A stretch of DNA of 59,225 nucleotides, the filler included. It is 5 parts of 5 records of this genome, joined end to end, with 100 filler letters (N's around TTAATTAATTAA, not from the genome) between each part and the next. Parts side by side here need not be neighbours in the genome. Positions count along the whole stretch, not along the records: positions 8,603 to 35,555 come from DRR723986_7016; 4 more parts are not named here. One strand, 5' to 3'. Position numbers and translations under genes: made by a program. The notes under the pieces are model-generated. The model was not told the origin of the DNA. It ran no database searches and saw nothing but the letters and a program-made list of their open reading frames with translations. How positions within the stretch are numbered: the first letter of the stretch is position 1; every line of letters starts with the position of its first letter. Of this stretch, positions 9,213-28,963 are shown in pieces.

Positions 9213-9216
9213 GTCG

Positions 9217-9307: not shown

Positions 9308-9355
9308 GACTGTATGAGCCTCCAGCGAATCTATGCGAAAGCGTAATCATTCACG

Positions 9356-9847: not shown

Positions 9848-9893
9848 CAATGGAAGATCTCTCGCGGCGACCGGCTGATCGGTATCGTTCGTC
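9803..9893 (+). repeat. attC-like site 3
   Basis: GGGAAAC-TATCCGCTGCACCCGAGGCGCCG...CGGCGACCGGCTGATCGGTATC-GTTCGTC, 91 bp. Confidence 0.75.
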
Positions 9894-9930
9894 GCTCATC
9901 GAACCGATAAGCTCAAACCAATAGATGCAT

Positions 9931-10470
9931 ATGGCTAAGATACTTACCTCAATTATTGCGATGGCATTGTTTGCAGTTTCGTCATGGCACACAGATGACG
10001 CGTTGCTTCATACCCAAGGTAGCACCAAAACATTTACGAATGGACAATCCTACCCTGAGGGCGAGTTACGCTTCGTTGTTCCTGAAATATTCGTGAAGCA
10101 AGCTTGCGAGGTGCTAGAGACTCCTAGTTCACTATCTGATTTCGAGATCGTTTTCGTCGGCCACGAAGCAAGTTCTGGATATATTACCCTGGATGGGGCA
10201 TTCTCGGCCTCAAAAGAGCATGACTTCGATTTTGCTTTACGTGATGTCGAGTATTCCCGCGGTGAGAAATCGACGCTCGCAACCGGCAACGTTGTTTTTG
10301 GTGACACGAAGAAATTCACTCATCGGTTCGTGGTATCCGTACAGAAGATCGGCGAATCTGGCGCCAAAGAGAACCGTCATGACCGGCTGGAAGGCCATAT
10401 CTGCTGGCCCGCACTGCTGGATGCACGCGACGAACAAAGCGATAAACGCAGAGTCGCCGAGCCAAACTAG
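9931..10470 (+). CDS. Cassette 3 hypothetical exported protein
   Basis: MAKILTSIIAMALFAVSS signal-like N-terminus; stop inside attC-like site 4. Confidence 0.7.
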   Translation: MAKILTSIIAMALFAVSSWHTDDALLHTQGSTKTFTNGQSYPEGELRFVVPEIFVKQACEVLETPSSLSDFEIVFVGHEASSGYITLDGAFSASKEHDFDFALRDVEYSRGEKSTLATGNVVFGDTKKFTHRFVVSVQKIGESGAKENRHDRLEGHICWPALLDARDEQSDKRRVAEPN

Positions 10471-10519
10471 TTTTACATCATTATCATCTACGGCGACCTG
10501 GTTATCGCTGACGTTCGTC
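10429..10519 (+). repeat. attC-like site 4
   Basis: GACGAAC-AAAGCGATAAACGCAGAGTCGCCG...CGGCGACCTGGTTATCGCTGAC-GTTCGTC, 91 bp; inner AGCGATAA/TTATCGCT and GTCGCCG/CGGCGAC pairs with unpaired bases. Confidence 0.85.
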
Positions 10520-10571
10520 GCCCTTGCACATCTAGTTGCCTGAAGTGTTCGAACCACAGAAAGGAAAAGCC

Positions 10572-10805
10572 ATGAAGAGAACAATCAAACGGCAAGCTAT
10601 TACGGCCGCATTGATCTGGGAACTCTGTTGGTTACCCATTGAAATTGCCTTTGTGGGTCTCGGTCTCTGGTTGTCGCTCAAACTCCAATGGATGACAATC
10701 GGCGGCCTTTGGCTGCTGGCATTCCTCGCCGTCGATTTCATGGTCAGATACCAGCACTATTCGAAAGTCGCGCCAACAATTCACGGCCCGCAGCTTGAGC
10801 GGTAG
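10572..10805 (+). CDS. Cassette 4 small membrane protein (possibly truncated)
   Basis: AAGGA before the ATG, two hydrophobic segments; stops about 110 bp before the next attC-like site. Confidence 0.6.
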   Translation: MKRTIKRQAITAALIWELCWLPIEIAFVGLGLWLSLKLQWMTIGGLWLLAFLAVDFMVRYQHYSKVAPTIHGPQLER

Positions 10806-10917
10806 CTGCGAAGAACCAGCGGATACGAGCGTAGTATCGGACGTGCGCCTTGGACAAATGGTTTTTGCGGCAGGGCTCCAATCCCAATCTGTTCGAAGCA
10901 CACACGAACAGACTGGC

Positions 10918-11006
10918 GACGAACCAAGCGTTGCAACCAAGCCGCCGCGCCTGTCCGGCGTGCTAAACAATCAACCCCGGCGGCTCGCTGAACGCCAGCG
11001 TTCCGC
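10918..11006 (+). repeat. attC-like site 5
   Basis: GACGAAC-CAAGCGTTGCAACCAAGCCGCCG...CGGCGGCTCGCTGAACGCCAGC-GTTCCGC, 89 bp, similar to site 1. Confidence 0.85.
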
Positions 11007-11041
11007 CATTCAAGAGTCTCCGCAACTGGAGAATCACGGAC

Positions 11042-11365
11042 TTGCAAATCAACGCGAACCAGATAGAGCTTCGAACGCTTTTCGTAATCGTTTTATTCGC
11101 GGCATTGGCGACAATTGCAATTCAGTTCATCGCTTCACACGGTCCAGAAATGTTCATTCTTGCGATTATGTTCAGTGCTGCGCTAGCCCTTGCAGGCTTT
11201 GGCCTCATTGGGTTTGCACTACTGATGGCATTTTCAATTCTGCTGACACCAAACGACGGCGAACAACGAACTAACCTTTATCGATGTGGCAATCTGGCAG
11301 TGATTGGCTCAATGGCGGTACTTCCGCTCCTGATGTGGATCTTGATTCTTCCGCACACAAGGTAA
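11042..11365 (+). CDS. Cassette 5 small membrane protein
   Basis: TTG start after GGAG, three hydrophobic segments, QIELRTLF-type N-terminus often seen in planctomycete small proteins. Confidence 0.65.
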   Translation: MQINANQIELRTLFVIVLFAALATIAIQFIASHGPEMFILAIMFSAALALAGFGLIGFALLMAFSILLTPNDGEQRTNLYRCGNLAVIGSMAVLPLLMWILILPHTR

Positions 11366-11465
11366 TGTTGGCCAATAAGACAGGCACTGGCCGGAAATTT
11401 GCGACGGTTTTGTCAATGCTACAATGTCACCTAGAGGTCTCGGGGCTCGTAGAAATGCGTAACGG

Positions 11466-11535
11466 GCGAAACCAAGCGTTGCAACCGAGTTCTCGATGCC
11501 ATCCTGAATTATATCGACATCAATCCCTCGAACCG
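11466..11535 (+). repeat. attC-like site 6, right arm missing
   Basis: GCGAAAC-CAAGCGTTGCAACCGAGTTCTCGA...CTCGAACC; the left arm matches sites 1 and 5, but no ...AACGC..CGTT right arm follows. Confidence 0.6.
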
Positions 11536-11859
11536 CCTCTTCCAAGTTGTGTTCTACGAAACGGGGTGCGCGGGGCTGCGACCGAAAGTGGACTAAGCGA
11601 CTATTCGAGGTGTGAATGCCAGTGCGCGTGCTGGGCCTACGGCATCCTCTCAGTATTCTTTGCAAGCTCTTGTTCGGCGTAGCTTTCAAGCAGGCCAGAT
11701 TCTTTAGGACGGCGTGGTCTTCATATTCTGGACACTGCGATGCCGTCGTGTCGCTGTCGCATCATATCTGTTGCCCGGGTGCAACGCAATGAGCGTTCAC
11801 CTGCGCCGCATACATCGCTTTGCTCGGTCGACCTGGCAGATCCTCTCTAGTGGAGGGAC

Positions 11860-12030
11860 TCAGCGAAGGAGTCCCAATAGAATCCAGATGGCGGCGATTG
11901 CTGGCACGGCAACTGCAATCACTATGCGCATCGAGAGCCACGGGAAAGCTTGGCGCTTGGCTTTTGGAGCCTTCGCAAAAGCAATCTTGGCGTCGTTATC
12001 ATCTAATCGCTCGATTTCGTTCAAATTCAT
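11860..12030 (-). pseudogene. Short or decayed membrane-anchored ORF (MNLNEIERL...IVIAVAVPAIAAIWILLGLLR)
   Basis: GGAG upstream of the ATG, one transmembrane-like segment followed by an early stop. Confidence 0.3.
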
Positions 12031-12326
12031 GCTGATGCAACTCCCTAAATTTGTTGACTACTTAGTTGGCGTTAACGGGCGGAAGTTTGGGCGCGGAAAG
12101 GGTGTTTTTCGGGCGACTTAAGACTGGATCGACCGGGGGCTAGTATCCCAGGCCTGTTCGTTTGATCGGCCCATCCAATGCTTTCGTGAACGCAGAGCGA
12201 TCTTCTTGGCGATCCAGTCCTTGTATGCAGGCTCGAAAATTCGTGGTTAAGGAGCGACTCAAGTCGGCACTCGCTTCCCACTAGCCAGTTGACTCCGAAC
12301 CCTATCCTGAAGGCGGGGCGTTTCGG

Positions 12327-13435: not shown

Positions 13436-16126
13436 ATGCATATGAACTATAGGTATGACGCCGAGTTGACGCGGCAGCTTCGGTGTGTGGGGCTGGCTCT
13501 GCTGATCGCAAGCGGAGTTTTCTTGTGCCCCGCCGCTGTGGCACAGGAGAAAGCCACGGCAAAAGCGAAAGCCGCTGAAGCTGATCCGAAGGCTCCTCCC
13601 CAGCCACCCGCTCAAAGCGACGCTGAGAAGGATGGAGAGGAAAAGGGCGACGGCGAAGCTGATGCGCCTCCCACAATGGCAATTGTCGGTGCTGACATAC
13701 ACACTCAGACCGGGCGTGGCGTGATCGCCGGTGGAACGATTCTGATTAGCAACGACAAGATCGTCGCGGTCGGAGACGGTGATCTTCAAATTCCCGATGG
13801 CGTTGAGACCGTCGATGGGGCGGGCTTGAACATCACGCCTGGCTTAATTGATTCACACAGTCGTCTTTGGTTGACGAGCTCCGCCGCCTCAGCAACGGCC
13901 AGCGATGGTTCCTTGAAAGTGCTCGATGGGGTTGACCCATTTGATGAGCAATGGAATGAAGTCATTCGCCACGGAGTGACGAGTGTCTATGTGCAGCCTG
14001 GCTCACGCGGAACGCTCGGAGGGTTCGGGGCCGTTCTATCAGTTGTACCGGGAGAGCTTGGTCCGGAGGTTCACTGCGAACTGGCTTCTCTACAGGCATC
14101 GTTGGGAATCGGTGCGACGACGAACCTTACACGGAATCAGCAGTACGAGCGCACGAAGAAAGCTCTCCAAGCGGCCGTTGACTATCAGAAGAAGGTCGAC
14201 GCCTATGCTGCCTATATGAAGAAGCAGGAGGCGGAGAAGAAGAAGGCCGCGGCTAAATCGAATTCGACGAAGAAGCCTGCCTCCAAGTCATCAACCAAGT
14301 CAGACGCGAAAACTGAAGCAACTGCAAAGAAGCCAACGACGGACCCAAGAGCCAAGGCGTCTTCGAAGCCGAGTTCATCAAGCTCGACTGCAAAGAGTGC
14401 ATCGGAAAAGAAGGAAAAGGCTCCTGAGAAGCCCGACGTTGATAAAAAGAAGGCCAGGCTTGCGAAAGTTGTGGCTGGTAAAATTCCGCTTCGCCTTGAG
14501 ATCAATTCGTCCGACGATGCTTATTACGCGCAGAAACTGCTAAAGGATTTCAAGGATCTGCAAGTAATTTTCACGGGGCTAGGTGATCTACGATCTGCCA
14601 AGGCAGACGTCGTCGATCTGAACGCACCGATGATTCTGGGGCCTTGGGTGGAAACAGAATCTAGCTACCGATCGCAGCCCGATAGTTGTGACCAGTGGGC
14701 CGAGTTGCTCGATGACTACGAAGGTGCCATTGTCGTGGCATCCAACGGAACCAACTCGCGAAGTTCTCGATTGCTCCGGGCACACGCTGCTCAAGCGGTT
14801 GCTTCGGGGCTCGATCACGCAACGGCCCTTGCTTCAATTACTTCTACGGCCGCTCGAGTGCTTGGCGTGGGCGACAAGATAGGAAGCGTCAAGGCTGGGA
14901 CACGTGCAGACCTGGTTGCCTTCGCTGGCGATCCTCTCGACAGCTCAGCACCAATCGTGTGGGTGATCTCTGGTGGCAAGATCGTCCATCAGGATTCCAA
15001 AGAATCGCACTCCCATGGAGCATACTCTGTTGCGGCTGAGACGGATGTCTCGATGCCACGTGCGGGTAAGATCGCAATCAAGACGAACAATTTTCTCTTG
15101 CCCAGTGGAAAAGTCGCATCACGTGTTGTTGTCATCAATCGCAAACGCGGCACGATGACAGCAACCAAACCTGGCGAATTCAAGGCTGGCAAGGGAACCA
15201 AGGTAGTCGACGTCGGGGACGCTTGGATAACGCCGGGACTATTCTCAGCACACTCAACACTTGGACTAAACCAGCTTGTCGACCCTCGCCTGTCTGATTC
15301 CAGTTATGTGGTCGCGGGCGACGCGATATCCCCCGGATTCACTCGAGAAGATGACTTGGTTGAGACGGGGTTGTTGAAAGTACTTCTTTCCCCAAGCGAC
15401 CGAAACACGCTTTCCGGTTCGAGCAGTTTGGTGCGACTGGGAGCAAAAGAGCAAGTTGCTGAGTCAATCGCAGCTCTCAAGTTCTCGATGACCGCGTCCG
15501 CTCGCACCACCGACCGCTTCCCATCGAGCCTGGCCGGTCAAGCGCAACTGATCAAAGAATCCCTGGACGGCAAACTGCTGGACACGCGACTGTACATTCC
15601 CGAAGCTGTCCAAGAGCAACTGGCCCAACAACGGCTCCAGCGGCTGAAGAGTGCCTCGGACGGTAAGACGCTTACGATCATCTCGGTTTCCAGTGATGCA
15701 GAGATCCGTGCGGCCCTCGACCTGGTCGAGCAACGCAAACTGAAGGCTGCATTGGTTGGACCCGCTCAACTCGCTCCGTTTGCGGATCGCATTGCTGAGC
15801 TAGGTGTTTCCGTTATTGCACGCCCAATCACATCGACCGACTACGATTGGTACACAGCGGATCTAGCTGCTGCATCCGAGGCGGGTGTTGAGATCACTTT
15901 CTCTGGTGAGCGTGCTCAGCAACTGCGGCTCTCGGCAGCACTTGCCGTTCAGAGCGGTATGCCAACGCAGAGGGCTCTCGCAAGTCTTTGCTATGGACCG
16001 GCATCGCTGACTGTAGAAACGAACAACGCTGACCTCGTCATCTGGACCGGATCACCCCTGAACTTGTCATCCAAAATCCTAAGCATCATGGTGGACGGAA
16101 ATGTTGTCACTTCGGATGCGAACTGA
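13436..16126 (+). CDS. Exported double-domain amidohydrolase-fold protein (both metal sites degenerate)
   Basis: Signal-like N-terminus; ITPGLIDSHSR and ITPGLFSAHST; GS-K-G--ADLV and ADLVIWTGSPL. Confidence 0.9.
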   Translation: MHMNYRYDAELTRQLRCVGLALLIASGVFLCPAAVAQEKATAKAKAAEADPKAPPQPPAQSDAEKDGEEKGDGEADAPPTMAIVGADIHTQTGRGVIAGGTILISNDKIVAVGDGDLQIPDGVETVDGAGLNITPGLIDSHSRLWLTSSAASATASDGSLKVLDGVDPFDEQWNEVIRHGVTSVYVQPGSRGTLGGFGAVLSVVPGELGPEVHCELASLQASLGIGATTNLTRNQQYERTKKALQAAVDYQKKVDAYAAYMKKQEAEKKKAAAKSNSTKKPASKSSTKSDAKTEATAKKPTTDPRAKASSKPSSSSSTAKSASEKKEKAPEKPDVDKKKARLAKVVAGKIPLRLEINSSDDAYYAQKLLKDFKDLQVIFTGLGDLRSAKADVVDLNAPMILGPWVETESSYRSQPDSCDQWAELLDDYEGAIVVASNGTNSRSSRLLRAHAAQAVASGLDHATALASITSTAARVLGVGDKIGSVKAGTRADLVAFAGDPLDSSAPIVWVISGGKIVHQDSKESHSHGAYSVAAETDVSMPRAGKIAIKTNNFLLPSGKVASRVVVINRKRGTMTATKPGEFKAGKGTKVVDVGDAWITPGLFSAHSTLGLNQLVDPRLSDSSYVVAGDAISPGFTREDDLVETGLLKVLLSPSDRNTLSGSSSLVRLGAKEQVAESIAALKFSMTASARTTDRFPSSLAGQAQLIKESLDGKLLDTRLYIPEAVQEQLAQQRLQRLKSASDGKTLTIISVSSDAEIRAALDLVEQRKLKAALVGPAQLAPFADRIAELGVSVIARPITSTDYDWYTADLAAASEAGVEITFSGERAQQLRLSAALAVQSGMPTQRALASLCYGPASLTVETNNADLVIWTGSPLNLSSKILSIMVDGNVVTSDAN

Positions 16127-16133
16127 GGGATCG

Positions 16134-17354
16134 ATGAGAACTGAGATTAGCTACATGAAATTGCAAACACTCGCGCTGCAACTCACCCTGGCATTTGTGA
16201 TGGTGCCCGTTACGTGGTGTGCCGCCGAAGACACTGTGCTCATCAGTGCGGAACACGTTTACACCATCGGCGGCGATGTTCTCTCGCCTGGACAGGTGCT
16301 GGTGCGAGACGGCAAAGTTCAGTCGGTCGCAAAGCAGATTGACGTCGATTCAGGTGTCGAGGAGCTGAAAGTGCACTCGCTCATGCCTGGTATTGTCAAC
16401 GCTTTCAGTCGAGCTGGAATTCGCGGAGGTGGGGCCGAACTGTCGCGTGAAGTAACACCGGATTTCAACACAGCAAGCACGATCGATTGGAGCGCCCGCG
16501 ACTTCGCCGAGGAGCTCGACCAAGGCGTCACAACCGTTCACATTCTGCCGGAAACGCAGAGCGTCTTCTCGGGCTTTTCGTTGGTTGCCAAGACTGCTGG
16601 CAAAGAAGAAAGCATGCTTCTCAGCCCCGAGCAATCGGTGGTCATAGCCGTAAGCAGCGACCCAACTTCTCGCAACCGCTCTCGTAGCCGTCCGGACAGC
16701 ATCTATGTTCGGCAGCCGACGAATCGCATGGGAGTTATCTGGATCATTCGCAGCACACTGCACCGAACGCAGCAGGGCGAGGTGTCTGACGCGCTCGACT
16801 CTACGACAACCGGCGTGCTCAAGGGCATGCTCGATGGCTCACGTGAAGTCGTCAGCGTCAGTCGTAAGGATTACGACATTCGCAGTGCGTTGGAATTGGG
16901 CGAGAATTTTGGATTTCAACCAGCGATTTACGGTGGCGACGAAGTCTACCGGATGATGGACGAATTCAAGGATTCCGGTGCACCGTTGGTCTACACGGCT
17001 CTGACGGTCAATGGTTCCGCGCGAAGCCTCCGGGGTGCCGAGGGTTCTGAGCTACGTTGGAACGTACCGGGTAAGCTGCAGTCAGCCGGTGTAACTTTTT
17101 GTCTCGCCGGAGAGAACGTTTTGGACCAAGCTCGCTTTGCAGTTCGATTTGGACTTTCCAAGAGCGAAGCCCTGTCAGCGATTACCCTGCGACCCGCACA
17201 AATACTGAAACTAGAAAACCAAGTCGGTTCAATTGCCGCTGGCAAGCAAGCTGACTTGGTCGCATTGAGTGGAGATCCGTTACAGCCAACCTCGACCATT
17301 TCCTGGACGATGGTGGGTGGGAAGATTTACGGCAACATCGAGAGCAACAAATGA
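16134..17354 (+). CDS. Exported amidohydrolase-fold protein (no metal ligands)
   Basis: MPGIVNAFSR, GVTTV, GSIAAGKQADLV; start 16134 or 16155. Confidence 0.88.
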   Translation: MRTEISYMKLQTLALQLTLAFVMVPVTWCAAEDTVLISAEHVYTIGGDVLSPGQVLVRDGKVQSVAKQIDVDSGVEELKVHSLMPGIVNAFSRAGIRGGGAELSREVTPDFNTASTIDWSARDFAEELDQGVTTVHILPETQSVFSGFSLVAKTAGKEESMLLSPEQSVVIAVSSDPTSRNRSRSRPDSIYVRQPTNRMGVIWIIRSTLHRTQQGEVSDALDSTTTGVLKGMLDGSREVVSVSRKDYDIRSALELGENFGFQPAIYGGDEVYRMMDEFKDSGAPLVYTALTVNGSARSLRGAEGSELRWNVPGKLQSAGVTFCLAGENVLDQARFAVRFGLSKSEALSAITLRPAQILKLENQVGSIAAGKQADLVALSGDPLQPTSTISWTMVGGKIYGNIESNK

Positions 17355-18733
17355 AGCACTATCACTCACCCAAGACACTGACTTTCTGGGGTGCCCTGTT
17401 TTGCGCAGTCGTTAGCGCGGCTGCACCGGTGATCGGTGCAGGGCCTCTCGCCATTCAAGGTGCGAAGATCATCACCGTGACTGGTGATGTCATTGAAAAT
17501 GGCACGGTGCTCGTACGTGACGGACGCATCGAAGCGGTTGGCACTGACGTGAAAGTCCCGGGAGAAGCCTTTGTTATCGATGGAACTGGCAAAGTTGTCA
17601 TGCCAGGGATTATCGACACGCATAATGCGGCCGGAATGAGTCAGGCGAATGAGCAAGCCTCCGTTGTTCCGTTCCTGTCGGTGGTTGATTCAATCGACCC
17701 AATTGCCGGCTACTTCGACGAATGTCGGCGCAATGGAATTACTACTGCATCGGTCGTGCCCGGTAACAGCACGTTGATCGGCGGCAAGGCGGCGATTGTG
17801 AAAACCGCTGGAGGCTACGTGAACGACATGCTTGTTCGTCGCGACTCCGCACTGAAGCTTTCGCTACGACCTACCGGCGGCAGTCGGATGAGTCAGCTTG
17901 CTCAGTTGCGCAGAGAGTTGGACGCCGCCAAGAAGGCTCTCAAAGAAGAAGCCGAAGCGGAAGAGAAGAAGTCCAAAGACGGCGAATCGGACAAGTCAGA
18001 AAAGAAGAGTGACGACAAGGACGAGAAATCTAAGGCCGACGAGTCAAAGGACAAAGATGCCCCTAAAGACGATGGGGACAAGGCTGCAGAACCGAAGAAG
18101 GAAGAGTCGAGCAAGGCAAAGGACGAAGGCCTTGAAGCGCTGAAGTTAGCTGTTAAGGGCGAGATGCCTGTCTACATCTACTGCGAAGTTGCGATGGATG
18201 TCGCTGCGGCAGAGAAGATCGTCAAAGATTACGGCCTGAACCCGATCTATGTTCTCGGACGTGAATGCTATCCAGCGGCCAAGCTCCTCGCCAAGCAAGA
18301 GCAGCCCGTCATCCTCGACCCAACGCTTGTCTACTGGAAGACGGACCCGCGAACACGGGAAGACGAGAAGATTGAATTGCCGAAGATCTATCACGATGCT
18401 GGCGTGCCGTTTGTGTTCCAGGTGAGTGATTCCAGTCGCCGCACGACGTTGGGAACGAGCTACTTCTGGTACCAGGCTGCAACTGCCGTGAAATACGGTA
18501 TCTCCGAAGCAGACGCCATGGCAGCGCTGACAATCGAGCCAGCCAAGCTGCTCGGTCTTGAAGACAGGATCGGAAGCATCGAAGTTGGCAAAGAGGCTGA
18601 CTTGGTCGTCCTGACCGGTGAACCGCTCGACATCACGACGTGGGTTGAAACCACAATCGTCGACGGTGAGGTCGTCTACAAACGCGATGATGATGAAAAG
18701 CTGAAGCGACTGCTTTCGCCGGAGGTTGAATAA
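17351..18733 (+). CDS. Exported amidohydrolase-fold protein with an acidic/basic insert (degenerate metal site)
   Basis: MPGIIDTHNA, GITTA, GSIEVGKEADLV; ATGA overlap with the previous gene. Confidence 0.9.
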   Translation: MKHYHSPKTLTFWGALFCAVVSAAAPVIGAGPLAIQGAKIITVTGDVIENGTVLVRDGRIEAVGTDVKVPGEAFVIDGTGKVVMPGIIDTHNAAGMSQANEQASVVPFLSVVDSIDPIAGYFDECRRNGITTASVVPGNSTLIGGKAAIVKTAGGYVNDMLVRRDSALKLSLRPTGGSRMSQLAQLRRELDAAKKALKEEAEAEEKKSKDGESDKSEKKSDDKDEKSKADESKDKDAPKDDGDKAAEPKKEESSKAKDEGLEALKLAVKGEMPVYIYCEVAMDVAAAEKIVKDYGLNPIYVLGRECYPAAKLLAKQEQPVILDPTLVYWKTDPRTREDEKIELPKIYHDAGVPFVFQVSDSSRRTTLGTSYFWYQAATAVKYGISEADAMAALTIEPAKLLGLEDRIGSIEVGKEADLVVLTGEPLDITTWVETTIVDGEVVYKRDDDEKLKRLLSPEVE

Positions 18734-18735
18734 GC

Positions 18736-21432
18736 ATGACGGTGATTGCAGAATTGAATCGTTCGTTCGCGATGGCACGACGTGTCGGATTAGCGCTGCT
18801 GCTATCCGCTGCAGCGTTGTGCAATCCAACGCACGGCCAAACGACCGCCTACTTCGCAGATGCGATATGGACTGGAGACGGCTCGCCCGTTCGAGACGCA
18901 GCTCTGATCGTACGCGATGGCAAAGTTGTTAGCGTTGGGGCACGCGACGACGTTGAGATCCCCAGAAACGCTCGACGTGTTGAGCTAGGGGCCGCCAACC
19001 TGATTCCTGGCTTGGTCGTTGCTCAAACCAATTTAGTGGAATCGACGCGTGCAGACGAATACTCGGTTAGTCCCGAAGTCCGGGCCGTTGATGGCTTTGA
19101 TCCGTTCGAAGACTATCACGATTTACTCGCCGCTGGAATCACCACAGTTCAAATCTCACCAGCATCCAATCGCCTGGTCCCGGGCCAGGGAGCGGTGGTT
19201 AAGTTGGGCGGTGAGGAATCGTTACAAAAGGTTCTGCTCGAGTCCGAGAGCCTCCGATTTGTGCTCACTCGAGAGGGGCTCTCGCCGCCTACCGTTTACG
19301 AGCCGCCAGTAGGAGCCGTGTCGGTAGAACGCCCTGTTGAACCAACCAAACCTCAGCTCGCGACCAGCCTTTCTCAGGCAGTGGTTGGCCTGAACGCATT
19401 GTTCAGTGTCGCAAGAAGCGGTGATGCAGACGGAAATGTTTCATTGGCGACTCTTGCAGAGCTGCTTGGTAACGGAACAGTATCTCGCTGGACCGCCAAC
19501 GGCAACGCCGAGATACAAGCGGCTCTTAAAATTGCAACCGAATACAACCTGCCATGGATCGTTGTCGATCCAGTCGATATTGACGTCCTTGCAAGTCGAA
19601 GCGTCTGGAAAAGCGAACTCGCTCGCGGCGTTGTGCTGAATCCGGAATTGCGTCCAGGACTCATCACCAATCCGAACGCCAACACCTCAGGACAAAAGCC
19701 GGAACTTCCCGTTTGGCAACGAGCTCGGAAGCTCTTCGATGCTGGAGCTGGAGACCGGTTGGCGATTCGCACGACAAGCGACCGCGATCTTGAGAAGTTG
19801 CTGTACGTTGCATCTGTCCTTGGACGCAGCGGCTTGTCAACTGCTCAGATATTAAAGACGATCACCTCAAATCCAGCACGGATTATGGGAGTCGACGACC
19901 GCGTCGGAATTCTTCAGCCTGGCGCTGATGCCGACTTCGTTGTTCTGTCGGGCAAACCATTTGATCGTGGCACCAAATTGCTGGCGACATACACGGACGG
20001 GAAATCCGTCTTTGAGCGGGAAGCGAAGAACGAGACCGCAAGTGTGATTCGCGCTTCGAGTATCTATACGGCCGACGGCGTAGTTTCCGGAGGTAGCGTT
20101 ACCGTATCTGGAGGCAAGATTGCTGGCCTTGGCAATGACGTTTCACTACCAAAGGGCGCTGAAGTCAAAGACTTTGGGGACGCCGTCATAATTCCTGGAA
20201 TGATCGACTGCTCGACTAGTCTTGGTTTCGGAGCAACATACAGCTCTGCTGCGGGACTTGGTACCAAGCTGGGTGGTTTGCTGGGACGCGACGATGATCA
20301 AGTCGCACGAGGGAGACAGGGCGGAGTGACGACCGGCTTGGTGAGTTCATCACGTCTGCCAAGTCCGGTCCTCGCGTTCAAGCTCTCCGACTCCCCTCGT
20401 CCGCTCAAGGACCCAGTGGCGCTTCGCTACGACATCAACGGCAACCTAACCGCAGCGGAACAGCGACTTGAAAGCGTCCTGAAGGCCGGCAAGGGCTATG
20501 CAGACGCCTGGACAAAATATGACGCGGCTTACGCCCAGTACAAAAAGCAACTGGCTGAATACGAAGCGGCTAAGAAGAAGTACGACGCTGCAGTGAAGGC
20601 GGCTGAAGCGAAGAAAGCTGCTGCCGCAAAGAAAGCGGAAGAGGAAAAGAAGAAAGCAGAAGCCGCAAAGAAGAGTGGCGCTTCTCCGAAATCCTCAGAA
20701 GCTGATAAGAAGGAAAATGACAAGGATTCCGACAAAGCCGAGGAAGAGAAAGACTCAGACGGCAAGGACTCCGACGAGAAAGATTCCGCTAAGGAAGACT
20801 CAGAGAAGAAGAGCGATTCCAAGTCTGGCGACGAGCCAAAACTTGTAGCTCCAAAGAAGCCAACGGAACCCAAGAAGCCTCGAGCAAGTTCGAACCTCGA
20901 ACCCTACCGGGCGGTATTCGCCAAGAAGCTACCCGTTCTGATCGAGGTCTCCGATGTCAAAGAACTCGAGCTGGCGGTGAATATTTTCCGAAAGAAGTAC
21001 GGTCTCAAGACGGGAATTGTTGCCGGTCAAGCCGCCGCAGCACGTGCTAAGCTCTTGGCGGAGAATGAGGTTTTCGTGATTGTTGGCCCGACCTTTGTCA
21101 GTACCGATGAAGACGGGCAACTACTGAACATTCCCGCAGAGCTCGCCGTCGGCGGCGCGGACCTGGCCTTCCAGTCAAAGGCTTCCACCGGAACTAGCGA
21201 GCTACCAACGGCGATCAGCTACGCAGTTTATGAGGGGCTGGGCGCAAGCGACGCGCTCGCAGGGCTCACTCACAGTCCCGCTCAGTTCTTCAATCTTGAT
21301 AGTGTGGGCGCGATTGCTACCGGCAATGATGCCGACTTGGTCGTTCTTAGCGGTCCACCAATGCTGCTCTCAACCGAAGTACTGGCAGTCATGATCGACG
21401 GCAAGTGGGTCTACGAAAAGGAAAGCAACTGA
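18736..21432 (+). CDS. Exported double-domain amidohydrolase-fold protein (no metal ligands)
   Basis: IPGLVVAQTN and IPGMIDCSTS; two G-L/I--G-DAD-VVLSG-P motifs. Confidence 0.9.
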   Translation: MTVIAELNRSFAMARRVGLALLLSAAALCNPTHGQTTAYFADAIWTGDGSPVRDAALIVRDGKVVSVGARDDVEIPRNARRVELGAANLIPGLVVAQTNLVESTRADEYSVSPEVRAVDGFDPFEDYHDLLAAGITTVQISPASNRLVPGQGAVVKLGGEESLQKVLLESESLRFVLTREGLSPPTVYEPPVGAVSVERPVEPTKPQLATSLSQAVVGLNALFSVARSGDADGNVSLATLAELLGNGTVSRWTANGNAEIQAALKIATEYNLPWIVVDPVDIDVLASRSVWKSELARGVVLNPELRPGLITNPNANTSGQKPELPVWQRARKLFDAGAGDRLAIRTTSDRDLEKLLYVASVLGRSGLSTAQILKTITSNPARIMGVDDRVGILQPGADADFVVLSGKPFDRGTKLLATYTDGKSVFEREAKNETASVIRASSIYTADGVVSGGSVTVSGGKIAGLGNDVSLPKGAEVKDFGDAVIIPGMIDCSTSLGFGATYSSAAGLGTKLGGLLGRDDDQVARGRQGGVTTGLVSSSRLPSPVLAFKLSDSPRPLKDPVALRYDINGNLTAAEQRLESVLKAGKGYADAWTKYDAAYAQYKKQLAEYEAAKKKYDAAVKAAEAKKAAAAKKAEEEKKKAEAAKKSGASPKSSEADKKENDKDSDKAEEEKDSDGKDSDEKDSAKEDSEKKSDSKSGDEPKLVAPKKPTEPKKPRASSNLEPYRAVFAKKLPVLIEVSDVKELELAVNIFRKKYGLKTGIVAGQAAAARAKLLAENEVFVIVGPTFVSTDEDGQLLNIPAELAVGGADLAFQSKASTGTSELPTAISYAVYEGLGASDALAGLTHSPAQFFNLDSVGAIATGNDADLVVLSGPPMLLSTEVLAVMIDGKWVYEKESN

Positions 21433-22670
21433 TGAGAAAAGTCCTGTTACTCGCTTGCCTGACCTGCTTCCTGTCCTCAGCCACATTGTTGGCTGACGAA
21501 ACCGGCAAACCGAAGTATGCGATCCAGGTTGGAAAGATCATCACTTCGGCGGGCGAGCCGATTATTGGTGGCACGATCCTGGTTTCCGATGGCAAGATCG
21601 AAGCACTTGGCAAGTCGAGTGAAGTTGAGATCCCCGAGGGGTACGAAGTCGTAAAGCATCCCAACTGCTTTGCGATGCCCGGCCTGATCGATGCACACTC
21701 GCACGTCGGTGGCTCGGGTGACCTTAACGAGATGGTCTATCAGACGAATCCTGAGCTGCGCAACTGGGACCAGATCATCCCTCACAACGATGATCTGAAG
21801 GTTGCCATTGCAGGTGGCGTCACCACGATTGCGTATATCCCTGGAAGCGGAACGAATATGGGCGGCTGGGGAACGCTGATGAAGACCGGCCCCGGAAAAC
21901 TGTCGGACGTCATCATCAAGGCACCCGGCGTCCTAAAGATTGCTCAATCTGGAAATCCCGAGCGTCGCGATGGCGAAGTAGGATCCGGACGAATGGGAAT
22001 GAATTATGTCATCCGTCAACAACTGGAAGAAGGCCGCGTTTACGTAAGGCTTTGGGATGAATTCGAAGCTGGCCGCACTGATGTGAAGCCGAAGGTGAAT
22101 CTGCGGCTAGAGTACTTCAAGCCACTGTTTCGTCGCGAGATCCCTGTCGTTGTCCACACTCAGGCTTATCAGGTTGTCCAGTCGACACTCCGTATCCTGC
22201 ACGATGAGATGAACCTCAAGGTGGTCATCGACCATGGTACGTTCGACAGTTACAAGATCAGCGATGAGATCATCAAGCGTAACATTCCCGTGATGGCCGG
22301 CCCGAGAGGATTCCGCTACGAACCGGAAGACGGGCAAATCAAGGGTATCGTCGCGGAGTACGCTGACCGAGGCATAACGTGGCTAGGCGTCAACACGGAT
22401 GCTCCTGTTATTCCACAGGAAGAACTTGCTTTTCAGGCGACGATGGCGGTGCGATACGGCTGGAACGAAGAAGACGCGATTGCTGGCATGACCATAGAGG
22501 CGGCCCAGGCGCTGATGATTGACGACCGTGTTGGATCCCTCGAACCTGGAAAAGACGCTGATATCCTGATCACCACCGGCTCGATCGTGGATCCAAGAAA
22601 CTACGTCAAGCAAGTGTTCATTAATGGGCAAAGCGTTTACGACACATCCAAAGATCGGCGCAGATTCTAA
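21432..22670 (+). CDS. Exported metal-dependent amidohydrolase with an intact ligand set
   Basis: PGLIDAHSH, VVVHTQ, VIDHG, NTDAP; TGATG overlap with the previous gene; signal peptide MRKVLLLACL. Confidence 0.92.
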   Translation: MRKVLLLACLTCFLSSATLLADETGKPKYAIQVGKIITSAGEPIIGGTILVSDGKIEALGKSSEVEIPEGYEVVKHPNCFAMPGLIDAHSHVGGSGDLNEMVYQTNPELRNWDQIIPHNDDLKVAIAGGVTTIAYIPGSGTNMGGWGTLMKTGPGKLSDVIIKAPGVLKIAQSGNPERRDGEVGSGRMGMNYVIRQQLEEGRVYVRLWDEFEAGRTDVKPKVNLRLEYFKPLFRREIPVVVHTQAYQVVQSTLRILHDEMNLKVVIDHGTFDSYKISDEIIKRNIPVMAGPRGFRYEPEDGQIKGIVAEYADRGITWLGVNTDAPVIPQEELAFQATMAVRYGWNEEDAIAGMTIEAAQALMIDDRVGSLEPGKDADILITTGSIVDPRNYVKQVFINGQSVYDTSKDRRRF

Positions 22671-22724
22671 GTACCGAGTTAGCAATCGTTGCTACGAATC
22701 CGACAATTGAATAAGCAGCTTTCA

Positions 22725-23954
22725 ATGCGAATCCATATCAATGTACTCAGCCAGCGGCTTGGCAGCACACGAGCCTTACTTTGCGTGTTGTGCTTTGCCG
22801 TTCTGACACCGTCTGCAACCTTCGCAGCCAAGACAGTGGCGATAACGAATGCCACTATCGAGACCGCGACCAAGAAGGGAGTGATGCAGAATGCAACGAT
22901 TTTAGTCAAGGATGGCAAAATTGCGGCCATCGGTGAGGATGTCGACATTCCGGTCTCCGCGCAGGTGATCGACGCCTCGGGCAAATTCATCATGCCTGGT
23001 ATCGTTGATCCGTATTACGTGGTGACCATTGGCCGAAACGTTACGAGTACACCGGCACGGACCATCGTTTTCAACGGGCGCGTATTTACGATTGGTGGCG
23101 GCTCGAGAGTCATTGCAACGACATTCGCCAAAATTTCCGACGGCCTAGATCCCAAGAAAGTGAATTGGTCTCCCGCGCTACGTAGTGGCGTGACGACATT
23201 TCACGTTGTCACTGGCGGATACGCACAGTCACTCTATGCAACGCCTGATCCGGATAGCGGCATTCAGCTCAAGAGTTCCGGCGGACGCCTGCTTGTTGCG
23301 GTATCCAACGACACCAAGACGCTCGACGTGCTTCGGAAGAACTTAAAGCCAAGTACCTCAAGCCGCTCGTCGAGTTCACGGACCAGCTCAACAACTAGCT
23401 CTCCCACTGCGGCACTTTGGAAAGACGTCCGCGAGGGCAAGGTGCCCGTTTTCATTAACGTGAACAATGCGTCTGCGATACTTCATGTCGACGCGATCAT
23501 GAACGAGCATCCAAAGGCAAAGGTTGCGTTGATTGCCAGCGGGCCAAACGTCTTTGACACACTGAAAAGCCTCGACAACGATCAATACACAGTCATTCTT
23601 CCGCCGGCGATTGATCGAAAGCCCAACTCGGCCTATCGAATCAACGTCTCGAAGATGCTCGCGGAGAAAGATGTCAACTTTGCACTTTCACTTTCCCTCG
23701 CGCAGAGCGACTTCTCTTCTCAGCAGTCCACACCATTGTTCGGTACCGCCATGTTGATTCGCGCTGGGCTTGACCGTCAGGCTGCGGTTCGAGCACTGAC
23801 GATTGAACCGGCCAAGTTGATTGGCTTGGACAAGGAAGTTGGCTCGTTGGAAGTCGGCAAACAAGCAAACCTGCTAGTCTTCGGCGAAGATCCTTTCTCC
23901 ACGATGGCCAGTATCGAAGACATCTACGTTTCAGGAGAACGGGTCAATGATTAA
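22725..23954 (+). CDS. Exported amidohydrolase-fold protein (no metal ligands)
   Basis: MPGIVDPYY, GVTT, GSLEVGKQANL; start uncertain (22689 or 22725). Confidence 0.88.
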   Translation: MRIHINVLSQRLGSTRALLCVLCFAVLTPSATFAAKTVAITNATIETATKKGVMQNATILVKDGKIAAIGEDVDIPVSAQVIDASGKFIMPGIVDPYYVVTIGRNVTSTPARTIVFNGRVFTIGGGSRVIATTFAKISDGLDPKKVNWSPALRSGVTTFHVVTGGYAQSLYATPDPDSGIQLKSSGGRLLVAVSNDTKTLDVLRKNLKPSTSSRSSSSRTSSTTSSPTAALWKDVREGKVPVFINVNNASAILHVDAIMNEHPKAKVALIASGPNVFDTLKSLDNDQYTVILPPAIDRKPNSAYRINVSKMLAEKDVNFALSLSLAQSDFSSQQSTPLFGTAMLIRAGLDRQAAVRALTIEPAKLIGLDKEVGSLEVGKQANLLVFGEDPFSTMASIEDIYVSGERVND

Positions 23955-25530
23955 GTGCACGAAGCAATCCGACCATCTTGCCTGCTGCTCGCTTGCGAAC
24001 TTCGTAGCCCGTGTGCGTCTGTTCGCGGCGATGTTCGTTCTCGCCAGCGTGACCGCTGCACCGATTAATGCGCAAGATGCCGATTCAAAGAAGGAAGCTG
24101 ATCAGAAGCAGCCTTCGGAGAAGAAGCCAGCGGCAGAAAACAAGTCACAAGACAAAGACAAAGATAAAAAGAATAGTGACATCACCGCCATCGTCGGCGG
24201 TGACATCATTACAGTCACTCGCGAAACCATTCGCGGTGGCACGATTCTTATCAAAGACGGCAAGATTACCGAGATCGGTACACGTGTTACTGTGCCCAAG
24301 GGTGCGAAGCGCATTGATGCATCGGGCAAGATCATCACCCCTGGATTTGTCTCACTGAGTGTTTCTCGTGTGGGGCTTCGTACATCTTCGTCGAGCAACC
24401 AAGACAGCCTTGATCCATTCGATTCGAACGTCCGGCTGTCACTGGGAGTTGGTATCACGACCGGCTGCCAGAAAGTAACACTGCGCAGTGGAAGCTCGTC
24501 ACGCAGGTTTCCTGAATCTCCCGAAGTTAGCTTTCCTCGCACCGAGCGATTCCCCGGTCTGGACCCGGATGAATTTCAGCTCGCGATGACTCAGCCGCCA
24601 GCGGTGCTGGACTATGGGGAGTTCGTCCCCACCTGTCCGTGTTGCGGCCTGCCGATTCTCCCAACCGAGCCACTCGCCACGCCCGCACCAAAAGCCCTGT
24701 CTTCGCAAGGTTCGGCGGTCATCAAGATGTCCTACGGCGTTCTTGATGGGATGTTGCTTAGCGAGAACGTGTTCATGGACGTCAATGCTGGGGCACTTCT
24801 TGGAGCCGGAAATCAAAGAAACTGGCGCGGCCAAATTGCACTGGCCAAGAAATACCTCAAGGAACAAGCCGAGCACGAGAAGGCGACCGCTGCAGGCAAG
24901 AAGGTTAAGCCGCCTCGCAAACCTGTAAAGGATGACGTGCTGCGACTGGTGAAGGGTGAGATCGCCATGAGAATCCCAGCCAACTCAGTTACCGAAATGC
25001 AGGCCATTGTGGATCTGTCTGAAGAACTGGGTTACCGAGTTGTCATTGATGGTGCAGCCGAGTGTTGGGTTATGCCGCGTGAACTGGCGGAAGCTGACGC
25101 ATCCGTGATCCTCACGCCGAGACGACGTCGGGCTGCACGATTTGGTCGGGAGGACAGCACTGGCACTTGGATCGAAGCGTCCCGTGTCATGGAAGAACAA
25201 GGCGTTCCCTTCGCGGTCAACGCACTTAGCAGTTCGATCAGTCTGAATGGATTAGCGGGTCGCGATCTGACCAGCCTTCCTCTTGAGGCAGCTTTTGCAG
25301 TGCGTGGCGGTGCATCGGAAAGAGCGGCTCTTGCTGCGATTACGATTGTCCCCGCCAAGATGATGGGCTTGGATGATCGGATTGGAAGTCTCGAAGTGGG
25401 CAAGGACGCTGATCTGCTTATCCTCAATGGGCAGCCGCTCGACTATCGGACCTACGTTGAAACGGCAGTGGTCAATGGCAACGTTGTTTACAAACGCGAT
25501 GAAGCTCGCGTGTTGCCAGTGTACGAATAG
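23947..25530 (+). CDS. Exported amidohydrolase-fold protein (no metal ligands, CPCCG insert)
   Basis: ITPGFVSLSV, GITTG, GSLEVGKDADLL; 8-nt overlap with the previous gene. Confidence 0.88.
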   Translation: MIKCTKQSDHLACCSLANFVARVRLFAAMFVLASVTAAPINAQDADSKKEADQKQPSEKKPAAENKSQDKDKDKKNSDITAIVGGDIITVTRETIRGGTILIKDGKITEIGTRVTVPKGAKRIDASGKIITPGFVSLSVSRVGLRTSSSSNQDSLDPFDSNVRLSLGVGITTGCQKVTLRSGSSSRRFPESPEVSFPRTERFPGLDPDEFQLAMTQPPAVLDYGEFVPTCPCCGLPILPTEPLATPAPKALSSQGSAVIKMSYGVLDGMLLSENVFMDVNAGALLGAGNQRNWRGQIALAKKYLKEQAEHEKATAAGKKVKPPRKPVKDDVLRLVKGEIAMRIPANSVTEMQAIVDLSEELGYRVVIDGAAECWVMPRELAEADASVILTPRRRRAARFGREDSTGTWIEASRVMEEQGVPFAVNALSSSISLNGLAGRDLTSLPLEAAFAVRGGASERAALAAITIVPAKMMGLDDRIGSLEVGKDADLLILNGQPLDYRTYVETAVVNGNVVYKRDEARVLPVYE

Positions 25531-26538: not shown

Positions 26539-28863
26539 ATGAGCAAGACGAGTCAAACCAACCGTCGACAAATTCTGAAGGGACTCGGCGCAGGGGCAGT
26601 CGCATCGTCGGCAGCAACCCAATTAGTGCGGGGCGCGGATACGGACGACCAAATCGAATTGGGATGGTCCGAAGCAAATGACAGGCCTTGGATTGGACCC
26701 GAATTCTGGGCCAATCCGATGGAGGACTGGTGCACGCGTGATGGGAAAGTGGAGTGCATTGCTGCGTCTGGTGGACGCAATGTGCACTGGATTACGAAAC
26801 GCATCGTTGCACCGCAGGCAGGTTTTCGAACAAGCATCACTGTCGAAACCGCAGAGGTCGGTAGCGGCGATAGTAGTTTCGGGTTCCGGCTGGGTGTGCG
26901 AAGCGATATCGACGAAACTCGTAGCAATTGCTTTGCATCCGGTGGCATCCCCGTCGGCGTCCGAGGTGGCAAGCTGATTCTGAAGCGAAAGACGGTTGAG
27001 GTCGATATCCCACAGGAAGAAACTCTCCGTTTGGAGGTCACTTGCAAAGAGGCGCCTGGCGGGAAAGTTCGGCTGCAGGTGAGTCTGTTCGCTCAAAGTG
27101 GACAACTGCTGGCGACAATCGGGGCAGTTGTCGCAGCACCAGATCTCATCGGAAACGTTTGTTTCGTCAATGGCCTCGACAGTAAGCAGAAGAAGTGCAC
27201 TCGCTATCGATTCTCCGACTGGATCCTGGACGGTGACGCCGTAGAAACCAATCCAGACGCGCGGTTCGGAGCAATCCTTTGGACCATGTACACATTGACC
27301 GATTCGCGAAGCGATGACGGATTCGTACTCAGGCTAACCGCGTTGCTTCCACCGCTTGGGAAAGACGATAGCACTTCCGTACATCTCGAATTTAGAGATG
27401 GCGACAACTGGGAGCGAAGGGAAACAACTGAGCTGGATCCTGATTCCTATACCGCTACGTTTGAGTTGCGTGGCTGGGACGAGACGGTGCCCGCAGACTA
27501 CCGTGTTGTTTACGATGAAGCGCGTCGAGAAGCCCCGCCAGTACAGCATACGTTTGAAGGCACAGTGCGGTCGAATCCCAAGGATCGACCACTGCGAATG
27601 GCTGCGATGACGTGTCAAAAAGACTACGCATTTCCGTATGAGCCGGTCGCTGAGAATGTTCTTGCGCTCGATCCAGACTTGGTTTATTTCTCTGGTGACC
27701 AGTTGTACGAAAACCACGGTGGGTTCGGAATCATTCGCGAGCCAGCCGATCGAGCGATTTTGAACTACCTTCGTAAGTACTACATGTTCGGTTGGGCGTT
27801 TCGCGAATGTATGCGAAGTGCCCCAACCGTGTGCATACCCGACGACCACGACGTCTTCCAAGGAAACATCTGGGGGGAAGGTGGAGCGCCGATGAAGGAC
27901 ATCTCGAAAGGGGCGTCCAGCAAGGGCGGCTATCGCGAGCCAGCGAGGATGGTCAATGTGGTGCACCGGACAAATGCGTCGCACCATCCGCAGCCTGCCG
28001 ACTCGACTCCTGTTCGACAGGGCATCAGCGTCTACTATGGCGACCTAGTGTACGGAGATGTCAGTTTTGCCATCCTTTCTGATCGACAATTCAAGAGCGG
28101 CCCAACGCGAGTCGAGACGGGTAGTGGGCGAGCTGATCACGTGCTCGATCCAAGCTTCGACACCGCGGTGCTCGACCGCGACGGATTGGTTCTCCTTGGT
28201 GAACGGCAGGAGTCCTTTCTTCAGCAATGGGCAAGCGATTGGAGAGGACATAGCCTGAAGGTTGTCTTGAGTCAGACCGTTTTCGCGGGGGTCGCCACGC
28301 ATCACGGGAAGTACGATGGCTACCTGAAGGCGGACCTGGATTCAGGGGGTTGGCCGCAGACGGCACGAGATCGTGCAATTGAGATTCTCAAGCCAGCAAG
28401 TGCACTGCACATCAACGGTGATCAACACCTTACATCGCTTTGCCAATACGGAGTCGACAAGCAGCGAGACGCATTTTGGTCTTTCTGCACACCAGCTATC
28501 GCCGCCGGCTACCCACGATGGTGGCGTCCCGATGAAATTGACATGCCACACGAAGGCCGGCCAGATCATGACTTGCCGAATACCGGCGAGTATCTGGATG
28601 GTTTTGGAAATCGTGTCTATGTTTACGCAGTTGGCAATCCTGAGGTGGGGACGGAAAAGAATCGCTACGATCTTGCTCATCAAAAGGGAAGCGGATTCGG
28701 CTGGGTAGTCATGGATCCAAAGAAGAAGACGTATACTGTCAATGCTTTCCGATTTCGCTGCGATCCGAAGAGCGATGATCCATCAGAGCAGTTCCCAGGT
28801 TGGCCGGTTGTAATCCACCAGTCTGAGAATGCCGGTGGGCGCAACATTGGCAAGCGAGGCTGA
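26539..28863 (+). CDS. Tat-exported PhoD-like metallophosphatase with a large N-terminal extension
   Basis: NRRQILKG Tat motif; GDQLYE, DDHDV, LSDRQFK and GDQH motifs. Confidence 0.85.
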   Translation: MSKTSQTNRRQILKGLGAGAVASSAATQLVRGADTDDQIELGWSEANDRPWIGPEFWANPMEDWCTRDGKVECIAASGGRNVHWITKRIVAPQAGFRTSITVETAEVGSGDSSFGFRLGVRSDIDETRSNCFASGGIPVGVRGGKLILKRKTVEVDIPQEETLRLEVTCKEAPGGKVRLQVSLFAQSGQLLATIGAVVAAPDLIGNVCFVNGLDSKQKKCTRYRFSDWILDGDAVETNPDARFGAILWTMYTLTDSRSDDGFVLRLTALLPPLGKDDSTSVHLEFRDGDNWERRETTELDPDSYTATFELRGWDETVPADYRVVYDEARREAPPVQHTFEGTVRSNPKDRPLRMAAMTCQKDYAFPYEPVAENVLALDPDLVYFSGDQLYENHGGFGIIREPADRAILNYLRKYYMFGWAFRECMRSAPTVCIPDDHDVFQGNIWGEGGAPMKDISKGASSKGGYREPARMVNVVHRTNASHHPQPADSTPVRQGISVYYGDLVYGDVSFAILSDRQFKSGPTRVETGSGRADHVLDPSFDTAVLDRDGLVLLGERQESFLQQWASDWRGHSLKVVLSQTVFAGVATHHGKYDGYLKADLDSGGWPQTARDRAIEILKPASALHINGDQHLTSLCQYGVDKQRDAFWSFCTPAIAAGYPRWWRPDEIDMPHEGRPDHDLPNTGEYLDGFGNRVYVYAVGNPEVGTEKNRYDLAHQKGSGFGWVVMDPKKKTYTVNAFRFRCDPKSDDPSEQFPGWPVVIHQSENAGGRNIGKRG

Positions 28864-28963
28864 TGGAACTCGACGACCGAGAACCTGCCCTAAAATTTAA
28901 TGCACAGCACAAGAACGCACTGTGTTTCTGTTGATGCTTTCAACCAGTAGAGAACTTAACGCG

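Follow-up and report, generated by a model that had tools for sequence, protein, structure and literature searches.

The amidohydrolase fold family is well described, as are catalytically dead paralogues that act as obligatory partners of other subunits and rings whose subunits have become differentiated. In the Pseudomonas aspartate transcarbamoylase (ATCase), the inactive dihydroorotase-like PyrC' is an obligatory structural subunit, and in the eukaryotic 20S proteasome and in CCT the fixed positions of the rings are filled by paralogues, some of them without catalysis. The closest solved relative of the proteins described here is 3OOQ, an uncharacterised amidohydrolase of Thermotoga maritima from structural genomics, whose structure entry comprises one sequence in 10 chains. 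Here, we describe an operon of seven genes at positions 13436-25530 (plus strand) of a stretch of DNA of 59,225 nucleotides, referred to as the window, meaning the whole stretch that was analysed. The seven proteins carry nine amidohydrolase-fold domains, a single one of which, D5, keeps the complete set of metal ligands. On balance, and by a narrow measure, the sequence features favor the seven proteins forming one exported hetero-oligomeric amidohydrolase with a single type of catalytic subunit. A full-text literature search, with most subscription journals outside its coverage, returned neither an account of this operon nor one of any hetero-oligomeric amidohydrolase that includes dead paralogues. 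The interest of the system lies in its scale, with eight dead types, in its age, in its probable export and in the availability of cultured carriers.

The metal-ligand columns were read with a hidden Markov model (HMM) iterated over all related loci, with H89, H91, K169, H242, H268 and D323 of D5 as reference. These residues comprise the HxH motif of strand 1, a lysine of strand 4, histidines of strands 5 and 6 and an aspartate of strand 8. The open reading frames (ORFs), their lengths in amino acids (aa), and the domains with their six ligand columns are the following.

13436-16126, plus strand: ORF1, 896 aa; signal-like N-terminus, acidic and Pro-rich linker, then the fused dead domains D1a and D1b
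13658-15055, plus strand: D1a, in ORF1; ligand columns HRQE-G
15056-16123, plus strand: D1b, in ORF1; ligand columns HTKS-E
16101-17354, plus strand: ORF2, 417 aa; dead domain D2, FRVV--
17351-18733, plus strand: ORF3, 460 aa; dead domain D3, HAKYLD, the best-conserved dead subunit
18736-21432, plus strand: ORF4, 898 aa; signal-like N-terminus, then the fused dead domains D4a and D4b
18823-20031, plus strand: D4a, in ORF4; ligand columns QNRTDT
20032-21429, plus strand: D4b, in ORF4; ligand columns SSREAK
21432-22670, plus strand: ORF5, 412 aa from the ATG at 21432; domain D5, HHKHHD, the sole domain with all six ligands
22689-23954, plus strand: ORF6, 421 aa from a TTG; dead domain D6, YVLNAS, the least conserved subunit
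23947-25530, plus strand: ORF7, 527 aa; signal-like N-terminus, linker, then dead domain D7, SRDP-L
24043-24189, plus strand: Lys/Asp/Ser-rich linker of ORF7, between the signal-like segment and D7

The genes are tightly packed. The listed ATG of ORF2 overlaps the end of ORF1, the stop of ORF2 and the start of ORF3 share an ATGA at 17351, ORF3 and ORF4 are separated by 2 bases at 18734, the stop of ORF4 overlaps the ATG of ORF5 by one base (TGATG at 21430), and ORF6 and ORF7 overlap by 8 bases at 23947. Some starts allow for a choice: the true start of ORF2 may be a later ATG directly before the hydrophobic segment, ORF5 has an alternative upstream GTG at 21405 (421 aa), and a start of ORF6 at a later ATG, residue 13, is possible. 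GC content is about 0.55 across the operon, and scans of both flanks for promoters and terminators gave counts no higher than in shuffled sequence. All seven proteins pass the curated Pfam cut-offs for both PF01979 Amidohydro_1 (36.7-71.4 bits, cut-off 25) and PF07969 Amidohydro_3 (34.8-65.8 bits, cut-off 29.7), and each of the two proteins of about 900 aa, ORF1 and ORF4, consists of two full domains. Identity to D5 is 18-28% for the other eight domains. The iterated HMM aligns with each of the nine from about position 10 to position 420 of its 422, the match being broken in two wherever there is an insert, and this near-full-length match points to homology rather than chance.

All six ligands of D5 are invariant in orthologue alignments of 16 and of 79 sequences. 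The eight remaining domains keep between 0 and 3 of the six, the maximum being the H, K and D of D3, and are members of the fold family, as judged from these columns, but not of the active enzyme class. A first-pass annotation of this DNA had proposed seven genes with nine domains, signal-like N-termini on every protein, and retention of the metal ligands in 21432-22670 only; ORF calls, Pfam and the domain alignment agree with the count and the coordinates, hydropathy with the N-termini (7/7), and the ligand columns with the last point (6/6 in D5, 3/6 in the next best). The motifs it quoted for D5 (DAHSH, VVHTQ, IDHG and NTDAP) and for the other eight domains (DSHSR, SAHST, NAFSR, DTHNA, VAQTN, DCSTS, DPYYV and SLSVS) are all seen in the domain alignment.

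Loss of canonical ligands might also be read as a change of chemistry, with the apparently dead domains acting as enzymes with non-canonical sites, either metal-independent or using other ligands, so that up to nine hydrolases would work on one complex substrate. LigI is a metal-independent member of the amidohydrolase superfamily. Each position has its own conserved substitutes for the ligands (H-x-K-Y-L of D3 across lineages, Y-V-x-N-A-S of D6 in the window's clade), D3 keeps its H, K and D, and D1b retains 4-6 of the six ligands in some lineages, all of which would suit such a reading. Against it, seven of the eight domains in the window keep at most 2/6 ligands, with none in D2, D4b, D6 and D7, and no alternative His/Asp/Cys cluster was identified in the dead domains. 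A conserved C-x-C-C motif in D7 lies in an insert and not at the barrel site. We therefore regard nine working hydrolases as improbable.

Structural comparison allows for a closer placement of the domains; modelling with AlphaFold2 covered D3 and ORF4, and comparison with the Protein Data Bank covered D5 by sequence and D3 by fold. The best sequence match of D5 is 3OOQ (E 1e-52 over 358 residues, with the six ligands aligned), the next entry following at E 8e-11. The model of D3, built from a 69-row alignment, has a predicted local distance difference test score (pLDDT) of 90.3 and a predicted template-modelling score (pTM) of 0.86. It matches 362 chains at E<=0.001, the best again being 3OOQ (E 8e-33, template-modelling score (TM) 0.83 on the target), with the others at 5e-15 or worse and TM ~0.5. 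D5 and D3 thus belong to a 3OOQ-type subfamily, clearly apart from other amidohydrolases. The two-domain model of ORF4 reaches a pLDDT of 88.5 and a pTM of 0.77 over 864 residues. In a preprint on a benchmark of complexes of 10-30 chains, 3OOQ is given as a dihedral example (10.64898/2026.08.06.736029). Ten chains in a dihedral arrangement would imply point-group D5 symmetry (not to be confused with domain D5), that is, a pentamer of dimers. The ten-chain dihedral form listed for the closest solved relative of both the active D5 and the dead D3 supports the origin from a homo-oligomer that had been suggested for this operon. A prediction of the D5 and D6 complex made without alignments gave a median of 0.68, with one control at 0.69.

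The operon is a conserved unit and not a recent or local pile of paralogues. Of 7998 database candidates scored, 3666 are related to D5 at E<=1e-10, the best 120 listed being 74-90% identical. When one genome per species was scanned, 318 contigs encoded a close relative of D5. Synteny was compared over the best 80 of these 318 contigs, with order assigned by best BLAST match. The order D1a-D1b/D2/D3/D4a-D4b/D5/D6/D7 recurs in all 42 kept loci of at least 18 kb, five of which have one gene split over two frames. In a stricter domain count over 66 loci with the cluster more than 400 nt from the locus ends, 47 hold exactly six dead, one active and two dead domains, two have the arrangement 6+2+2 and one 6+3+2; the remaining 16 consist of split fragments or frames or start at a contig edge. 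Gene number and order had been named in the first-pass annotation as a check on the operon, and these counts bear out their conservation.

Sequence identity to the window across the 42 long loci differs strongly between the domains. D5 stands at 68-87%, followed by D3 (44-71%), D7 (43-70%), D2 (39-65%), D4a (38-67%), D4b (33-62%), D6 (32-57%), D1b (30-56%) and D1a (30-53%); in the 79-row alignment, orthologues of D5 are 46-91% identical. The dead domains overall are 30-71% identical where synonymous sites are saturated. The ratio of nonsynonymous to synonymous substitution rates (dN/dS) was computable in 10 of 63 cells, from seven close loci, and lies at 0.07-0.14 apart from one value of 0.45 on a truncated locus. 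The proposed survey of dN/dS thus found constraint on the degenerate domains wherever the ratio could be computed, with the same single outlier. The extreme conservation of D5 (68-91% across genera) suggests an important reaction.

Outside the seven genes, conservation ends. None of the window's 12 flanking ORFs is kept beside the cluster, with sulfatase-family matches only, in 7 and 5 loci, and an all-against-all comparison of the flanks returned lineage-restricted neighbours only, such as a glycosyltransferase-3-like gene (10 loci) and a PLD-like gene (5 loci). The seven genes therefore travel as a self-contained unit.

A common promoter and pathway, with nothing else in common, might be all that holds such a unit together. 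The seven products would then be co-regulated but independent exported proteins, D5 working alone or as a homo-oligomer like 3OOQ and the dead domains serving as separate binding proteins for substrates, products or envelope polymers. The dead domains evolve much faster than D5 (30-71% vs 68-87% identity), active copy number varies separately from the dead set, and each protein has its own signal-like N-terminus, as such independence would predict. Yet independent proteins would need neither a strict order over wide divergence, nor gene overlaps, nor repeated fusion and fission of neighbours, and eight binding proteins derived from one enzyme, none of them lost in 50 intact end-free loci, would be unusual. 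We consider independence the less likely outcome, albeit one that deserves serious attention.

The N-terminal evidence rests on hydropathy scoring. Every protein starts with a basic n-region and an N-terminal hydrophobic 13-mer with a Kyte-Doolittle mean of 2.08-2.53, the highest value being that of ORF1 (2.53). Later 13-mers within the same proteins reach maxima of 1.28-1.83, below the N-terminal value in each case, and by eye the N-termini of the orthologues are similar at all seven positions.

The distribution of the cluster was followed in 401 sampled genomes of Planctomycetota, the phylum of strain SH139 (locus L027). At E<=1e-80, 109 of them have a match to D5, four at 71% identity or more and the others at 55% or less; at E<=1e-30, the number of genomes with a match is 167. 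The more distant versions of the cluster occur elsewhere in the phylum, outside the class of strain SH139. Named database relatives include Tautonia species, a Gemmataceae metagenome-assembled genome (MAG) and many MAGs titled 'Planctomycetes bacterium'. A contig titled 'uncultured Alcaligenaceae bacterium' (CAYPIE010000023.1, our locus L073) carries a complete Pirellulaceae-type operon with a D5 71-74% identical to that of the window, and is probably a mis-binned or mislabelled MAG contig.

From the phylum sample, 28 further loci were drawn, and their architecture was read wherever the contig covers the cluster. They display the dead D1a, D1b, D2 and D3, the fused D4a-D4b, one to four tandem HHKHHD domains, and the dead D6 and D7, in this order. 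A 135-row FastTree phylogeny with Shimodaira-Hasegawa (SH)-like support, built from the full sets of domains in 12 loci and from outgroups, places eight of the nine positional classes each on one side of a branch: the active class (100), D3 (100), D7 (100), D4a (97), D2 (96), D4b (95), D6 (92) and D1b (84). D1a needs two changes, and a 103-row tree agrees. Deeper groupings join D1b with D4a (91), D1a with D4b and D7 (94), and D3 with D6 (98). The nine types therefore predate the split of the sampled lineages, with the eight dead ones constant. Together with the dN/dS values, this marks the degenerate domains as old, position-specific orthogroups under constraint.

The active domains were placed in a separate tree of 59 sequences (IQ-TREE 'quick'), with four fused domains as the outgroup. 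All single-copy genes share one clade, which leaves out 12 of the 15 copies that stand last in the block of a multi-copy operon; its SH approximate likelihood ratio support of 88 is moderate, and the branching near the root is uncertain. The topology is consistent with an old second active paralogue that has no counterpart in the single-copy lineages. This position of the 12 last copies, the eight constant dead orthogroups and the 10 chains of 3OOQ together lead to a more specific model, which we put forward as speculative and on present evidence unlikely: a fully differentiated hetero-decamer, in which each of the ten equivalent positions of an ancestral, D5-symmetric homodecamer like 3OOQ would have been taken over by a distinct paralogous domain, eight dead and two active. 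In some lineages, two old paralogues (ACT-a and ACT-b) would take the active positions, and in that of the window the single D5 would be present twice. A count of ten leaves no room for operons with three or four active genes.

Fusions between neighbouring domains offer support for their physical pairing. D4a and D4b are fused in every locus that covers both, and D1a and D1b are fused in the window's clade and encoded by separate genes in four other loci (L086 and L090-L092). In two further loci (L087/L088), D1a, D1b and D2 form one frame of 1355 aa, a type that recurs in 10 database proteins. Among the 120 longer homologues of D5 listed, 75 are two-domain proteins with an active and a dead domain, 30 pair a near-active domain (HHKHQD or HHKH-D) with a dead one, 10 are of the D1a-D1b-D2 type, three are dead/near-active/dead and one is dead plus dead. 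The one remaining protein, P0235 (1387 aa, ENA source), combines in a single chain D4a, the N-terminal half of D4b and a complete active domain, and could be a true D4-D5 fusion or the result of a frame error. An apparent fusion of D4b to an active domain in L095, along with very long open frames around D5 matches, was rejected as an artefact of open frames in high-GC sequence, the domains lying in different frames.

The two-domain proteins of about 840 aa (P0236-P0354) consist of one active domain of the 3OOQ type and one dead domain, as in the pair HHKHHD and RHVH-K. Source names among the longer homologues include Aminicenantes, Acidobacteriota and Vicinamibacterales, and the type with an active and a dead domain is common outside Planctomycetota. 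In the phylogeny, its dead halves are placed next to the active clade rather than with D6, indicating an independent origin. Less elaborate loci of this subfamily are present in carrier genomes as well (L101 at G001:C1:104000-115000, L102, L103 and L104), in which a protein of about 1100-1150 aa (dead plus near-active HHKHQD) is followed by a dead protein of about 480 aa; in G001, an active gene is followed by a dead one (HVVH-G). Fusions and simpler loci alike suggest that the pairing of active and dead domains is a recurrent habit of the 3OOQ-type subfamily.

Several of the dead domains carry inserts, those of D1a, D3 and D4b being charged, located as follows.

14207-14467, plus strand: D1a insert, Lys/Ser/Ala-rich and of low complexity; ORF1 aa 258-344, 87 aa, net charge +16
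17915-18139, plus strand: D3 insert, Lys/Glu/Asp-rich; ORF3 aa 189-263, 75 aa
20554-20880, plus strand: D4b insert, Lys/Glu/Asp/Ala-rich; ORF4 aa 607-715, 109 aa
24634-24645, plus strand: CPCC (C-x-C-C) motif; ORF7 aa 230-233, in a D7 insert of ~70 aa (about aa 176-245)

The insert of D1a sits at the position of the helical hairpin between barrel strands 4 and 5, and in the model of D3 the insert forms the disordered end of a long helical hairpin (helices 150-186 and 220-239, pLDDT <50 at 195-216). In D4b, a modelled helix of about 65 residues (537-601) precedes the insert and is followed by 64 disordered residues (604-667, model numbering). The HMM match is split at the D1a insert in the window and most other lineages, and at the D4b insert site in other lineages too. 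In both ORF1 and ORF7, a charged segment of low complexity likewise comes after the signal-like one. Behind the C-x-C-C core of D7 stands a G/N/S/D-L-P stretch that hardly varies, CPCCGLPILPTEP in the window. The core occurs in 71/71 D7 domains of the Pirellulaceae-type operon, the window's clade, and in 0/24 of other lineages, and may represent a metal or disulfide site.

Arms of this kind could also be at home in a mainly structural assembly, an envelope or periplasmic scaffold whose charged segments bind wall or polysaccharide, with the activity of D5 secondary and serving, for instance, in maturation or remodelling of the scaffold or wall. The long Lys/Glu/Asp/Ser-rich segments of D1a, D3 and D4b, the N-terminal linkers of ORF1 and ORF7, the modelled helices of up to ~65 residues and the eight-to-one excess of non-catalytic mass are all compatible with it. 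No other part, however, is nearly as conserved as D5, an indication that catalysis is what selection acts on, and Pfam detects no wall-binding or anchoring domain in the window proteins. The cluster is also not found in most sampled relatives. A primarily structural role hence has little probability in our view.

We infer the hetero-oligomeric enzyme from synteny, overlapping genes and fusions, and its assembly, stoichiometry, location and chemistry are deduced in turn. It is favored by several features in combination: the genes form a fixed set in fixed order and overlap, neighbouring domains have been joined and separated, the dead domains are under constraint, and the closest relative is a decamer. 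In this enzyme, D5 would be a binuclear-metal hydrolase of the 3OOQ type carrying the only active site, and the eight other domains would be ancient paralogues that lost their ligands and were kept as position-specific structural or substrate-handling subunits. The assembly would most likely descend from a homo-oligomer resembling 3OOQ as a dihedral particle of ten chains. The fused pairs D1a-D1b and D4a-D4b would occupy neighbouring positions, and the charged helical arms of D1a, D3 and D4b might project from the particle or tie it together. The reaction is probably the hydrolysis of an amide or peptide-like bond outside the cytoplasm, and a periplasmic or envelope-associated location would fit.

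Several observations weigh against this picture. With a signal-like N-terminus on each protein, assembly would necessarily have to follow separate export. In the carrier's own class, that of strain SH139, only 13 of 301 sampled genomes have a match (all 68-82% identical), so the cluster is dispensable for most relatives. Active gene copies vary from 1 to 4 across lineages around the eight constant dead domains, and the D1b position keeps ligands in some of them: HHKHHD in L108 (1644-2672) and HLKHHD in L086 (5570-6718), with HHKYEG in L087/L088 and HHKR-D in L112 (1-975) elsewhere. At D1b, 'dead' is therefore a lineage-specific description, and neither the stoichiometry nor a rule of one active site is fixed. 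The notion of one catalytic subunit, as first proposed, accordingly holds in the window's lineage but fails in others, where two to four active paralogues or near-complete D1b ligands occur. NCBIfam offers no substrate clue, every model scoring far below its curated cut-off for the window proteins; the best scores for the Xaa-Pro dipeptidase/Arg-Lys carboxypeptidase model NF051886 and its kin are 81.5 bits for ORF4 and 68.1 bits for D5, vs a cut-off of 500.

The surroundings of the operon add a few separate observations. The operon is followed downstream by a PhoD-like phosphatase (26539-28863) and two sulfatases (28922-30520 and 30635-32197), a neighbourhood that is not kept in related loci. 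Base composition is uneven along the window: GC is 0.49-0.52 at 8001-12000, with five ORFs (9356-12121) that have no Pfam match, and 0.69-0.71 at 52001-58000, with an iPGM gene (57461-58966, minus strand) as the only one recognised.

Compared with the systems described so far, 3OOQ is by far the nearest and has, like D3, a helical hairpin between strands 4 and 5. It differs in being a single gene with a single subunit type, lacking dead paralogues and long charged inserts, and its chain aligns from residue 23. Itself uncharacterised, 3OOQ gives no hint of the substrate; if the seven proteins form one particle, they would attach a function to this uncharacterised subfamily. The next-best matches are exported COG1228-type enzymes, namely the L-Arg/L-Lys carboxypeptidase Cc2672 (3MTW), Sgx9260-type prolidases (3FEQ and 3N2C), 8IHQ and 9L36. 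These belong to the same superfamily and have the same beta-sandwich and barrel with a binuclear site, but the match is weak (E 8e-11 and worse, TM ~0.5), and they are homo-oligomers of one subunit type without dead partners.

Other parallels lie in organization. The PyrC' system likewise keeps a catalytically dead amidohydrolase-fold paralogue as a structural subunit of a large enzyme complex; there, however, the partner enzyme, ATCase, is unrelated, one dead type stands against eight, the complex is cytoplasmic, and no active amidohydrolase takes part. The prozymes of trypanosomatid S-adenosylmethionine decarboxylase (AdoMetDC) and deoxyhypusine synthase resemble the operon in that a dead paralogue partners an enzyme and activates it. 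Prozymes, proteasome and CCT differ in having unrelated folds, in being eukaryotic and cytosolic, and in a composition that is experimentally established, while the assembly proposed here is deduced. Should the seven proteins indeed form one particle, it would be an extreme bacterial case of a homo-oligomeric enzyme differentiated into fixed, mostly non-catalytic positions and assembled outside the cytoplasm, with eight old pseudo-enzyme types around one or two active ones. It would also offer a tractable system for asking why dead paralogues persist, given cultured carriers with complete genomes (SH139, SH449, SH467 and SH501). The hetero-decamer, if true, would be an exported bacterial counterpart of the subunit differentiation of the proteasome and CCT, with a 4:1 excess of pseudo-enzymes.

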